A stretch of DNA of 10,819 nt from a virus. Taxonomy: Duplodnaviria > Heunggongvirae > Uroviricota > Caudoviricetes. The notes under the pieces are model-generated. The model did not search any database, was not told where the DNA came from, and worked only from the letters and a program-made list of their open reading frames with translations. The first letter of the stretch is position 1; each line of letters opens with the position of its first letter. Made by a program: the position numbers and the translations under genes. Shown here in pieces: positions 8,066 through 10,720 of the stretch. The stretch is from IMG/VR virus record IMGVR_UViG_2778261301_000013; one strand, 5' to 3'.

Positions 8066-8241
8066 GAAAACAACCCATTATCAAATACAAGGCCCGACAT
8101 GAAAACGCCAGAAAAAGGCATTTTCGGACACTTTCATGTCGGACCTTTACGGATGAAATATTAAAAAAAACAAAAAGTTATATTCGAGAAGTACCGACAC
8201 GATTTTCCCTGAAAAATTTTCATAAATAGTGAAAAACCGCG
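8066..8241. promoter_or_regulatory. cosB-like terminase-binding region between cosN and Nu1, with three candidate small-subunit binding sites and an A/T-rich putative IHF bend site
   Basis: The first 35 nt on the Nu1 side of cosN (minus-strand CGCGGTTTTTCACTATTTATGAAAATTTT) match the lambda left end as recalled, then the sequence diverges. CCGACA occurs at 8094..8099 and 8194..8199 (same orientation, exactly 100 bp apart) with an inverted copy TGTCGG at 8137..8142, mirroring the lambda R1/R2(inverted)/R3 layout but with a different motif. A/T-rich segment with an A8 run at 8146..8190 lies between the distal and middle sites. Confidence 0.65.
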
Positions 8242-8253
8242 AGGTCGCCGCCC
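8242..8253. other. cosN: 12-nt cohesive-end sequence (minus-strand GGGCGGCGACCT)
   Basis: Plus-strand aggtcgccgccc at 8242..8253 is the exact reverse complement of the lambda 12-nt cohesive end GGGCGGCGACCT, flanked by lambda-like sequence on both sides (minus-strand ...GGTTACG|GGGCGGCGACCT|CGCGG...). Confidence 0.85.
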
Positions 8254-8287
8254 CGTAACCTGTCGGATCGCCGGAAAGGACCCACCA
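8254..8287. other. cosQ-like region (phage right-end sequence adjacent to cosN)
   Basis: Minus-strand GGTGGGTCCTTTCCGGCGATCCGACAGGTTACG closely matches the lambda right-end sequence as recalled (GGGTCCTTTCCGGTGATCCGACAGGTTACG), which contains cosQ. Confidence 0.7.
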
Positions 8288-8378
8288 AAAATGATAATGA
8301 TTGTCAAATACGTTTATCACACTGATATTCAGAATCACTACTGAAAGACTCCCTTTGTGGTGCGCGAGGGATGCGCAT

Positions 8379-8405
8379 AAAAAAACCACCAGCAAATGCC
8401 AGTGG
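8379..8405 (-). terminator. Intrinsic terminator candidate downstream of the 134-aa ORF
   Basis: Minus-strand RNA CCACUGGC-AUUU-GCUGGUGG (8 bp stem including two G-U pairs, 4 nt loop; plus-strand 8386..8405) followed immediately by UUUUUUU (plus-strand A7 at 8379..8385). The stem pairs better in the minus-strand transcript than in the plus-strand one. Located about 60 nt after the stop at 8466. Confidence 0.5.
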
Positions 8406-8465
8406 CTAGAGATATTCATTGCGAATAACCATCACAAAACAACTTAACTCGTGAGGGTAGAAATT

Positions 8466-8870: not shown

Positions 8871-8930
8871 AAAAACCTCCTTAGGATAATTGGAGGTCTA
8901 GAATACCGTTTGCAAGCACGTTGATAAATC

Positions 8931-8939
8931 ATTATCACA
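8931..8939 (-). promoter_or_regulatory. Candidate extended -10 promoter element (minus-strand TGTGATAAT) for the 134-aa ORF
   Basis: TGnGATAAT on the minus strand about 60 nt upstream of the GTG start. No good -35, which is acceptable for extended -10 promoters. Overlaps an imperfect palindrome (8936..8961). Pattern-based only. Confidence 0.3.
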
Positions 8940-9005
8940 GGCACTCAATGAATGCCTGCTGTAATTGCGTACGGTAATGAACGTAAAAAACCGCCCGAGG
9001 TATAT

Positions 9006-9230
9006 TTAGACATTAGATGGCGCTTTGTCAGTATAGACCCGGTACGCCCTGACAAACATCCCGTTACATTCAGAGTCCGCCTTGATATACGCCAATTCGT
9101 AACCCCGATGCTTTAGCTCTTCACGAGCTCTTTTCTCTTCCTTAGCCATGAAGTTAAGATCTTTAATTTCTGAGTAGGTATATGTTCCCACTATAAAATC
9201 TCTGCCTGGCCGTCCATTTATCAGCTCCAT
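9006..9230 (-). CDS. Hypothetical small protein, 74 aa (possible N-terminal extension to 9365 giving 119 aa); no family recognised
   Basis: Six-frame ORF 9006..9365 begins with GTG with no SD. The internal ATG at 9230 is preceded by GGGAGGA (minus-strand TTTTTGGGAGGACAC-ATG), so the 74-aa product MELINGRPGRDFIVGTYTYSEIKDLNFMAKEEKRAREELKHRGYELAYIKADSECNGMFVRAYRVYTDKAPSNV is preferred. The upstream in-frame region resembles sequence found after the stop of the 93-aa gene, so it may be a gene remnant. Confidence 0.5.
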   Translation of the reverse strand: MELINGRPGRDFIVGTYTYSEIKDLNFMAKEEKRAREELKHRGYELAYIKADSECNGMFVRAYRVYTDKAPSNV

Positions 9231-9247
9231 GTGTCCTCCCAAAAAGT

Positions 9248-9323
9248 TGGTAGTCAGAACATACCATGCTAAGCGAGGTGAAAGCACCTTTATCAAGCCC
9301 CCCGCAGATAGACTTTGTAATGG
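9248..9323. repeat. Diverged direct repeat, copy A (partner at 9681..9743)
   Basis: Plus-strand tggtagtcagaacatacc...ttatcaagccccccgcagatagactttgtaatgg aligns with copy B, tggtggcccagaataaattccggtttcattatcaagcccacccgtaaatgggctttgtaatgg. Shared blocks are TGGTNG..CAGAA, TTATCAAGCCC and CTTTGTAATGG; copy A carries an extra roughly 23 bp and one extra C in the C-run (9298..9303). Confidence 0.6.
9258..9266 (-). promoter_or_regulatory. Candidate extended -10 promoter element (minus-strand TGGTATGTT) for the 74-aa ORF
   Basis: TGnTATGTT on the minus strand about 28 nt upstream of the ATG at 9230, leaving room for a short leader containing the GGGAGGA SD. No convincing -35. Pattern-based only. Confidence 0.25.
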
Positions 9324-9680
9324 AGAGTCATTGAGTAGTTCTCGTAATTCTTTGATTTTCCGCACACTCGTGCAGAAGGAGTTCCCCGTCGGGCTACGGT
9401 CATGGTTAATGCGGGAATACAGCGACGATACAGCGCATGATGTGTCAGGCTTGAATACCTTTATCCGTTAAAAGGGATATCAGTTAAGTTACACCGTGTA
9501 GGGTATAAGCCATTGTCGAGACCACTCATTGAATGGCCTCTGCAATAACCGATGTCTTTCCATCAGTCCGCCACCACAAAGAATCTTTTTTGCCTTAAGG
9601 CAGGAGCTTCATCTTTCAGTGGCTGCCAGTGTTATTTCCCCACTTACTGGCTTGGGTTGTTTCGTGGTACTGCCGTTAAC

Positions 9681-9743
9681 TGGTGGCCCAGAATAAATTC
9701 CGGTTTCATTATCAAGCCCACCCGTAAATGGGCTTTGTAATGG
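9681..9743. repeat. Diverged direct repeat, copy B; begins immediately after the stop codon of the 93-aa ORF (minus-strand sense)
   Basis: See copy A. On the minus strand copy B contains a 7 bp inverted repeat AAGCCCA-TTTACGGG-TGGGCTT. Confidence 0.6.
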
Positions 9744-10025
9744 CTACTTCACTTTTGCTTTTGCTTTTGCTTTTGCTTTTGCTTCCGCTCGCTTACGCCG
9801 GCGCTCTTCTTTCCTCTCGGCTTTTGCCATGTCCATGAATGCCTGCATGATCGAGTTCCGCATCATGTAGCTAACAAAGTGATGATTGACACAGCCGTTG
9901 AGGCGCAGCTGCTCGCCAAACTCATCCACCGAGGCCAATGCTTCCATCATGCCCTTCTCGCCTTTCATGAACTCTGAGAAGTCGCGCCCCGCTCTGGAGG
10001 CGCATTCAATGACACGATCACTCAT
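9744..10025 (-). CDS. Hypothetical protein, 93 aa, with a strongly basic C-terminal tail ending in an (Ala-Lys)n repeat
   Basis: ORF 9744..10025. Its ATG at 10025 overlaps the stop of the upstream KilA-N-like ORF as ATGA (10022..10025), suggesting translational coupling. Translation MSDRVIECASRAGRDFSEFMKGEKGMMEALASVDEFGEQLRLNGCVNHHFVSYMMRNSIMQAFMDMAKAERKEERRRKRAEAKAKAKAKAKVK. No family recognised with confidence. Confidence 0.65.
   Translation of the reverse strand: MSDRVIECASRAGRDFSEFMKGEKGMMEALASVDEFGEQLRLNGCVNHHFVSYMMRNSIMQAFMDMAKAERKEERRRKRAEAKAKAKAKAKVK
9753..9782. repeat. Hexanucleotide simple sequence repeat (TTTTGC)5 on the plus strand = (GCAAAA)5 on the coding strand, encoding AKAKAKAKAK
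   Basis: Five perfect tandem hexamers visible at 9753..9782, followed by a degenerate sixth (ttccgc). Lies within the 3' end of the 93-aa ORF, in frame. Confidence 0.9.
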
Positions 10026-10634: not shown

Positions 10635-10688
10635 AAAAAACATGCGTTGCGGTACGCATTTATTGCAAAAAGCCCCGCATCGCGAGGC
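10635..10688 (-). terminator. Two tandem intrinsic terminator candidates between the Rz stop and the KilA-N-like ORF
   Basis: Distal: minus-strand RNA GCCUCGC-GAU-GCGGGGC (7 bp stem; plus-strand 10672..10688) followed by UUUUU (plus-strand 10667..10671). Proximal: AUGCGU-ACCGCA-ACGCAU (perfect 6 bp stem; plus-strand 10642..10659) followed by G then UUUUUU (plus-strand 10635..10640). Confidence 0.5.
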
Positions 10689-10720
10689 TCATTAAATGGA
10701 CTTTGTGATTTGCAAAAAAA

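Follow-up and report, generated by a model that had tools for sequence, protein, structure and literature searches.

REP-like intercistronic hairpins at candidate module junctions in the late operon of lambda-like phages

Why should a lambda-like prophage keep, between two small genes of its late operon, a spacer of 513 bp that is poor in open reading frames (ORFs) and contains one sequence twice in the same orientation? The question is raised by positions 9231-9743 of a 10,819-nt stretch of DNA (hereafter the window) from the IMG/VR virus record IMGVR_UViG_2778261301_000013 (Caudoviricetes), where the spacer separates a 93-aa gene of the hkbL type, ending with a TAG stop codon at 9746-9744, from a 74-aa gene on the same (minus) strand. 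An earlier note, made from the letters of this DNA alone, saw in the spacer either a decayed paralog or module-exchange junction, or the result of a nonsense mutation or stop-codon readthrough, or a non-coding RNA or regulatory region. Its observation is partly confirmed here: the coding interpretations are refuted, and the junction and non-coding RNA interpretations are supported in a sharper form. By analogy, the repeats can be classed as an intercistronic, REP-like phage hairpin, and comparison with related phages indicates that the spacer is a non-coding chain of independently distributed modules.

The existence of the direct repeat is far above chance. Local alignment of its two copies gives 30 matches in 35 positions with one 1-nt gap, and the score of 43 compares with a mean of 13.1 (standard deviation 2.0, maximum 23) in 2000 shuffles; the same pair was returned by a repeat search (D3 plus D7). 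Its length was overestimated at 65-75 bp, and the limits 9681-9743 (copy B) and 9248-9323 (copy A) have to be replaced by 9743-9709 and 9323-9290, that is, by ~35 nt. Each of the two copies is an inverted repeat in its own right. The single-nucleotide difference noticed in a G-run is real, but the actual pair is GGGTGGG versus GGGGGG, a deletion within the 3' arm of a hairpin. Two further copies had been overlooked, one inside the spacer at 9547-9511 and the other beyond the 74-aa gene at 8966-8930.

These copies belong to a family of hairpins that was discovered by BLAST with the region of the 74-aa gene, which matched unrelated phages over 36-42 nt at 8965-8925/8930 with 90-97% identity. Near-identical versions of this copy (X2; 94-97% identity) are intergenic and follow the lysis genes in phi80, several Klebsiella phages, Pectobacterium phage ZF40 and others. 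On the sense strand of the late operon, the element of ~37 nt consists of (C/U)AUUACA, a variable stem, an apex, the complementary stem, and GAUAAUG. Hardly any variation is seen in the lower stem (CAUUA/UAAUG) or in the 2x2 internal loop above it (5'-CA / 5'-GA). The middle stem, of 5-7 bp, varies freely in sequence while remaining complementary, and most copies are capped by CAUUC-NNN-GAGUG, in which one U·G pair is conserved; copies of the H1 type have a UACG tetraloop at this place. In the predicted fold, which has the 2x2 internal loop, the stems amount to 15-16 bp in total.

A covariance model of the family finds four copies in the window, all on the minus strand within 8930-9742, and none elsewhere in it, the structural genes included. 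The first, H1 (9742-9707, CAUUACAAAGCCCAUUUACGGGUGGGCUUGAUAAUG), corresponds to the former copy B and starts 1 nt after the TAG; it scores 47.9 bits (E 8e-13), folds with -17.0 kcal/mol (z -3.7) and was also detected as an inverted repeat. X1 (9547-9511, UAUUGCAGAGGCCAUUCAAUGAGUGGUCUCGACAAUG; 52.5 bits) folds with -21.4 kcal/mol in the sense orientation (z -5.45) versus -10.2 kcal/mol in the antisense orientation; it aligns with the 8966-8930 copy and with those of phi80, a Klebsiella phage and ZF40, and retains the internal loop, next to which an A-U pair has changed to G-C. The highest score, 55.2 bits, belongs to X2 (8966-8930, AAUUACAGCAGGCAUUCAUUGAGUGCCUGUGAUAAUG; -17.2 kcal/mol, z -4.55). 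The fourth copy, H2 (9322-9288), has a 1-nt deletion and a GAUAAAG 3' arm, scores 12.9 bits (E 0.09) and folds with -8.0 kcal/mol (z -0.66); judged by these two changes, it appears to have been left non-functional. The scan against Rfam 15 that the earlier note had proposed gave no match at the gathering threshold in the window, nor in 18 related loci (123 kb), and the hairpins remained unmatched even at E up to 10. A literature search by topic and by motif sequence found no description of the family, most subscription journals being outside its coverage so that an earlier description is possible. The family thus appears to be undescribed in Rfam 15 and in the searchable literature.

The hairpin has the mark of a structured RNA, namely compensatory changes that preserve its pairing across independent sequences. 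Since the first hairpin collections required pairing and the covariance-model alignments were partly selected for it, a follow-up scan of IMG/VR prescribed only the arms and the apex and allowed any base at five positions in each strand of the middle stem. Among the 26 distinct stem pairs that it returned, 21 are fully complementary and the other five have four of five pairs; the chance of five out of five is 0.7%. The same pattern, run on one genome per species for 185,579 species, yielded 58 loci with 23 stem pairs, 16 of them fully paired. Nearly all of the loci (56 of 58) are in Enterobacterales, from ~25 genera that include Serratia, Pectobacterium, Yersinia, Klebsiella, Citrobacter, Erwinia, Rahnella and Pragia; the other two, in an Advenella metagenome-assembled genome (L259) and in Sphingomonas sp. 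(L294), may reflect contamination, mis-binning or a really wider host range. The pooled scans contain 37 stem combinations, 26 of which are fully paired, with 143 Watson-Crick, 31 G·U, 4 A·C and 7 other cells. In a 33-sequence alignment (A4), 98.2% of the cells pair versus 85.7% in shuffles, with none of 500 shuffles reaching the observed value; nine of the 15 pairs have changed on both sides, and pairing drops to 34-48% in slid registers. No row of this alignment departs from the U·G pair, in part because these bases had been prescribed by the search pattern for 26 of the 33 rows. A control set of arm matches, collected with no pairing requirement, comprised a chance-level group with at most five of seven pairs and 38 distinct sequences with six or seven of seven. 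The constraint is also strand-specific: the mean folding energy is -16.5 kcal/mol in the sense versus -11.3 kcal/mol in the antisense orientation, and one copy scores 59.7 bits versus 16.7 bits with the covariance model. The suggestion of a non-coding RNA or regulatory region is thus supported in a form that the earlier note had not anticipated: the repeats are themselves structured RNA elements with covariation, and they match no known Rfam family.

The structurally constrained and sense-specific hairpins of this family are located at the ends of cistrons. A stop codon lies 0-3 nt upstream of the hairpin in 177 of 272 unique contexts, with the consensus UA(A)GG|CAUUACA, and in 216 of 238 contexts the 200 nt before the hairpin contain the end of a sense ORF of 50 aa or more. 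The upstream genes fall into at least 39 unrelated protein clusters, including Rz spanins, Rha, partners of KilA-N, Gp49-like proteins and many small proteins. The copies are co-oriented with the late genes, both strands being occupied in just 6 of 240 loci, and occur singly or in arrays of 2-4, ~200-350 nt apart (median 309 nt), the next gene with a ribosome-binding site following at a median of 62 nt. They are confined to the accessory region between the lysis genes and cos/terminase; among whole genomes, phi80 has one copy and KPP5665-2 has two, all after the lysis genes on the late strand. No copies are present in the lambda genome or in the cryptic prophages DLP12 and Qin of E. coli K-12, hence K-12 data are not transferable to the hairpins. 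Two simple roles are not supported by the contexts. The terminal AUG does not behave as a gene start, as it opens a median of 12 codons. As to intrinsic termination, six or more T in the next 10 nt occur in just 8 of 297 contexts (mean T fraction 0.25), and a terminator scan called none of the four window copies. In locus L306 (positions 2501-2767; Rouxiella sp. WC2420), an hkbL homologue lies among Arc, Bro-N/antirepressor and Rha-ANT genes, followed by a tailspike gene, and no hairpin follows it, which shows that the gene and the hairpin can be separated.

Can the spacer still be explained as former coding sequence? It is ORF-poor as claimed, its longest minus-strand ORF having at most 36 aa when the 5' extension of the 74-aa gene is excepted. 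The frame past the TAG does stay open for 44 codons (translation PLQSPFTGGLDNETGIYSGPPVNGSTTKQPKPVSGEITLAATER, then a stop), the frame of 9006-9365 does read ...NDSPLQSLSAGGLIKV..., and the peptide motif PLQS..GGL, reported as common to both copies, is present in both; some database proteins also continue beyond the usual stop. On these grounds the TAG could be followed by a C-terminal extension that is read through or was recently cut off, with the two copies as remains of a duplicated coding sequence. The motif, however, is just hairpin DNA read in one frame, and both flanking proteins match their PHROG profiles over the full length: the 93-aa protein covers positions 1-85 of 85 in phrog_875 (E 4e-54, profile search) and the 74-aa protein positions 1-74 of 74 in phrog_6100 (E 1e-55). 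In the 119-aa ORF made of the 74-aa gene and its upstream extension, the match to phrog_6100 is confined to residues 46-119, and the extension, as judged from this profile, is outside the family.

The readthrough product (93 + 44 aa) was further searched against 5.8 billion proteins. Most of the 120 homologues listed are 83-93 aa long, have the same end point and match the first part of the query only, and clusters of 800 and 248 members among them terminate at the same codon. The few longer homologues are all singletons. P0001, P0008, P0062 and P0066 run on through frameshifts in a GCAAAA hexanucleotide repeat (9752-9789), which is 3'-terminal in the 93-aa gene and specifies a (KA)n tail, with the hairpin read in another frame (…HYKAHLRVGLIMKPEF…; HYKAHLRVGLIM...), and P0003 and P0005 are longer through fusion to unrelated C-terminal sequence. 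The tail of 44 aa beginning PLQSPFTGGL is absent from all run-on homologues among the 120 listed, so that the intact homologues envisaged by the earlier note, with the post-stop peptide as coding sequence, did not emerge. In relatives, 1-nt indels in the 44-codon stretch (GTTAACGG versus GTTACGG; A6 versus A7) break all frames on both strands, and the 44-aa peptide has no PHROG or Pfam match. The full-length profile matches, the shared stop and the indels rule against a nonsense mutation or readthrough, and the repeat, being a non-coding hairpin and not a gene remnant, rules against a decayed paralog; a coding origin is therefore highly improbable. Smaller candidate ORFs were rejected as well. 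Those of 80, 62 and 55 aa on the plus strand of the spacer match nothing in PHROG or Pfam, and indels in relatives interrupt them; the annotation of phage Chlobot has one of them as a coding sequence. A 28-aa ORF in the conserved core described below (MNLLPYGKKDSLWWRTDGKTSVIAEAIQ in most relatives) was discarded because a TAT to TAA change truncates the window copy, A7 variants are frameshifted, and the variable sites are non-synonymous.

The composition of the spacer was resolved by aligning the window with HK97, Dewey, HK620 and phage 2851 and by comparison with ~110 viral contigs that share a spacer 21-mer. In the direction of transcription, H1 is followed by a linker (9706-9686), a conserved core of 138 nt (9685-9548) and X1. 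Segment C (9460-9510) comes next; in HK97, HK620 and Dewey it serves as the leader of hkbM (DUF2560), a gene absent from the window, and continues into the ribosome-binding site and ATG of that gene. Segment D (9351-9459) is a separate mosaic piece common to phage 2851 and Shiga toxin (Stx) phages, to phage 434 and lambda-like phages, and to many E. coli prophages, where it is located 3' of a convergent DUF1398 gene. A relic unit (9288-9359), which includes the former copy A, consists of a 36-nt leader (9359-9324), homologous to sequence preceding H1-type hairpins in other phages, and the decayed hairpin H2; the homology of copy A to other phages accordingly extends upstream to 9359 and not downstream. 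The last part, 9231-9287, can be read directly as the 5' leader of the 74-aa gene with its ribosome-binding site (GGGAGGACAC-ATG). The spacer can thus be described as a block of hkbL, H1, core, X1, C and D joined to a block of relic leader, H2, 74-aa gene, X2 and 134-aa gene. The relic unit is 82-86% identical to the viral contigs L070, L084, L090, L096 and L098, which are without hkbL; in these contigs, a 31-codon ORF (MANAKLRYRKNQSITRTEQRLSITKPIYGWA) overlaps the stop of the upstream gene (TGATG), traverses the H1-type hairpin and ends at TGA-TAA-TGA in its 3' arm.

The idea of a module-exchange junction is supported, as the segments differ in phage distribution and their junctions coincide with the repeat elements. 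In phage 2851, H1 is joined straight to the sequence that follows X1, a deletion between two 3' arms. Locus L117 has a chimeric hairpin whose 5' half is of the Y type and whose 3' half is that of X1, and in L011 a cassette of leader, 125-aa gene and hairpin stands exactly in place of X1, the downstream sequence being unchanged. L154 shares window positions 9527-7712, upstream of which it has Rz, a terminator and a different hairpin; the junction is within the hairpin, and the canonical terminator lies directly against the family hairpin. In an Enterobacter prophage (L309), the entire equivalent of the spacer is one hairpin between an hkbL homologue and the small terminase gene, and at another locus two hairpins are 50 nt apart. 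A histogram of similarity end points was used instead of a flank-linkage test, which was confounded by the short length of the cassettes; 29% of 4764 end points are within -10 to +59 of the hairpin start, a range that makes up 7% of the span examined. The module junctions, deletions and chimeras thus appear in these alignments to fall inside the hairpins or at their edges, which is why we describe the spacer as a chain of modules.

Such a pattern could also be produced by DNA-level recombination sites of the attC kind, with a recombinase acting on the folded single strand to move cassettes of a gene plus its hairpin. The layout is indeed cassette-like, with small ORFs arrayed in the same orientation and, immediately after each of them, an imperfect hairpin that has conserved base sequences, conserved unpaired bases and a variable centre; the cassette of L011 substitutes exactly for a hairpin, and the strand asymmetry is also compatible with a single-stranded DNA substrate. 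The positions of the crossovers differ, however, being at the apex in L117 and at the 3' edge in phage 2851 and L154, and therefore homologous exchange on the shared arms fits better than a site-specific cut. The arms are CATTACA/GATAATG instead of the attC boxes RYYYAAC/GTTRRRY, the length is 37 nt versus 57-141 nt, and an integron-type integrase was not found in the annotated neighbourhoods. An IntegronFinder survey of 10,705 phage genomes is reported to contain just 17 attC clusters, and none of the four shown in Figure 2 of that paper is from an enterobacterial lambdoid phage (PMC9892861). We consider an attC-like site quite unlikely. Resemblances to sites for integration host factor and to Chi, checked by eye, did not fit the consensus.

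The functional part of the spacer might instead be the 138-nt core, acting as a small RNA, as a processing site in the late transcript or as DNA bound by a protein, and the hairpins would merely flank it. Across phages, the identity of the core to the window is 93-97%, compared with 61-89% for the adjacent hkbL coding sequence; the core is found in HK97, HK022, HK620, P22/BTP1 and Sf6 and in more than 100 viral contigs. It is preceded by hkbL plus H1 or directly by rha (P22/BTP1, POCJ13), and the variation of its flanks on either side indicates that it behaves as an independent module. It nevertheless folds no better than shuffles (z -0.86 sense, -1.47 antisense) and is without covariation, the variation being scarce and the rare changes breaking predicted pairs. 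No promoter-like site or conserved ORF was found in it, and it is absent from some equivalent loci, where the hkbL homologue and a hairpin abut the terminase gene. For BTP1 lysogens, the supplementary gene table of PMC7067206 lists no non-coding RNA between rha and pid. The single Rfam hint, Proteo-phage-1 RNA (RF03044) at 9621-9656, scores 16.8 bits (E 3.2) versus a threshold of 42 bits and aligns by its single-stranded flanks only (CCCAAG … GAAAUAACACUGGCAGCC), both hairpins being replaced by 6 nt each; the resemblance is probably due to chance. Taken together, a role residing in the core is possible and rather doubtful. Its origin from the pid moron of P22 was considered and rejected: in BTP1, where the pid promoter and terminator have been mapped experimentally (PMC8835761), the insertion of pid directly follows X1 and leaves the core outside both signals, and we therefore regard the core as backbone sequence. 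The Pas small RNAs are located elsewhere, near Q and the holin gene. On the plus strand, a core palindrome at 9587-9606 (GCCTTAAGGC) forms a weak terminator-like site (UUUUUGCC-UUAA-GGCAGGAG, then a U-rich tail); it could be a candidate stop for antisense transcripts from convergent morons.

The repeats could also be inert leftovers of old gene ends or terminators in a spacer that is junk between modules, their apparent conservation being explained by frequent and recent exchange of lambdoid modules. Several facts agree with such a view: H2 is decaying (12.9 bits, -8 kcal/mol) and copies can therefore be lost, lambda and the K-12 cryptic prophages do without the element, which is thus dispensable, and the core shows neither structure nor coding. 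Neutral relics, however, are not expected to keep 37 middle stems complementary through two-sided changes in ~25 genera, nor to have a strong strand bias and a fixed distance to the stop codons of at least 39 unrelated genes. Inertness is accordingly an improbable explanation.

We lean towards the hairpins being RNA elements of cistron ends that serve stability, processing or termination coupling, recombination being a by-product; we hold this reading to be somewhat better than evenly probable. The hairpin would act as RNA within the late transcript antiterminated by Q, most likely as a barrier or as a processing signal by which the stability or yield of the cistron before it is determined, like REP elements or the RNase III sites of T7; a coupling to translation termination is possible because the hairpin abuts the stop codon. 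At the same time, the conserved arms would supply otherwise unrelated cassettes with 20-37 nt of shared sequence, and because the copies share sequence, homologous recombination between them could shuffle, delete or insert units of a gene plus its hairpin and leave the ORFs undamaged. Such exchange would have built the spacer, with H2 left as a scar.

Several points weigh against this interpretation. The role at the RNA level is inferred from strand asymmetry, covariation and position. The covariance-model alignments were partly picked for pairing, the pattern searches alone being unbiased, and the asymmetry of G·T wobbles would be compatible with a hairpin in one strand of single-stranded DNA as well. 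The histogram of end points counts related loci repeatedly. The strong conservation of the stem sequences (lower stem, internal loop and apex) suggests a specific binding partner, and a simple stability element does not explain the distance of 0-3 nt from stop codons; the invariant stems together with this fixed distance point to a specific partner or to coupling with terminating ribosomes. In the boldest version, for which we see little probability, a dedicated cassette system would operate where the late operon of Enterobacterales temperate phages ends, with a specific factor from host or phage that recognises the lower stem, the CA/GA loop and the apex and either ties the expression of each accessory gene to the termination of its translation or moves whole units of gene and hairpin. 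If true, it would be a phage counterpart of integron cassettes or of the systems formed by repetitive extragenic palindromic (REP) elements and REP-associated tyrosine transposases (RAYT).

The window spans the right arm of a lambda-like prophage and the beginning of its left arm; the genes lie on the minus strand and are transcribed leftward in the order Rz end, KilA-N gene, 93-aa gene, spacer, 74-aa gene, 134-aa gene, cosN and terminase genes. The KilA-N/ORF11CD3 protein is encoded at 10519-10022, the 93-aa hkbL-like protein (HK620 hkbL type, phrog_875; homologues of 83-93 aa) at 9744-10025, the 74-aa protein (phrog_6100, with the family start placed at ATG 9230) at 9006-9230, and a 134-aa protein of phrog_585 at 8870-8466. 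The cohesive-end sequence of lambda, GGGCGGCGACCT (cosN), is found at 8253-8242 on the minus strand, ~190 nt upstream of a Nu1-like small terminase gene, which is followed by the large terminase, W and portal genes. The gene order identifies the spacer as part of the accessory region between the lysis genes and cos within the late operon, and the position of cosN places it ~1-1.5 kb from the right end of virion DNA. A 90-aa ORF at 8147-8419 is probably not a real gene, because it spans cosN and its match to phrog_11159 is merely partial. Just after Rz, at 10640-10700, there are canonical terminator-like hairpins with U-tracts, e.g. AGCCUCGCGAUGCGGGGCUUUUUGC and AUGCGUACCGCAACGCAU-GUUUUUU. ARAGORN found no tRNA or tmRNA within the window. 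The full arrangement is carried by 5 of 5426 complete E. coli genomes (97.8-98.7% identity), and portions of it are present in 3914 genomes; in the closest one, TA8571, the NCBI Prokaryotic Genome Annotation Pipeline leaves a gap of 874 bp (L005 2491-3365) in which the 74-aa gene is included.

The region between lysis and packaging genes holds small accessory genes, including virulence and defence-related cargo, and the hairpin provides a concrete signal for cassette boundaries in the annotation of prophages, as well as a mechanistic handle on how mosaic junctions may arise with no damage to genes. It is also a candidate for the post-transcriptional control of cargo genes in late transcripts, and a motif as widespread as this one (~25 genera) would join the catalogue of structured phage RNAs.

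How does the element compare with systems already known? Intrinsic terminators that bound phage morons are likewise stable hairpins 3' of accessory genes in lambdoid phages; the hairpins described here differ in lacking a U-tract (present in the 8 of 297 contexts given above), in the A/U-rich base of the stem and in their conserved sequence. Integron cassettes with their attC sites resemble them in the co-oriented arrays of small ORFs and in strand-specific imperfect hairpins with conserved ends and a variable centre, and are set apart by the boxes, absent from the 272 unique contexts, by the greater length, by an integrase that the annotated neighbourhoods did not reveal and by the variable crossover points of the phage hairpins. 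The promoter early stem-loop (PeSL) cassettes of T4-type phages are also conserved, short and non-coding; they border small accessory genes within a plastic region and offer shared homology for module shuffling. PeSL elements, however, include an early promoter and lie upstream of genes, whereas the hairpins are promoterless and follow stop codons in the late operon of temperate phages. The intercistronic RNase III hairpins of T7 and lambda sib are likewise conserved phage hairpins with an internal loop; they act on long polycistronic RNA and set the fate of the upstream message, and the counterpart role of the present hairpins would be analogous. The stems of 15-16 bp are shorter than those of typical RNase III substrates, to which there is no sequence similarity.

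A further likeness is to the REP elements of E. coli and Salmonella, which are also imperfect palindromes of ~35-40 nt with a conserved asymmetric mismatch, multi-copy, intergenic within operons and often just past a stop codon. REP elements protect the upstream mRNA from 3' exonucleases and, when near the stop codon, lower the expression of the upstream gene. Their consensus is not known to share sequence with the phage hairpins, beside whose arrays no RAYT-type transposase was found in the annotated neighbourhoods. In contrast to REP elements, the hairpins are restricted to phages and prophages, where they occupy one region only and keep a uniform orientation relative to transcription.

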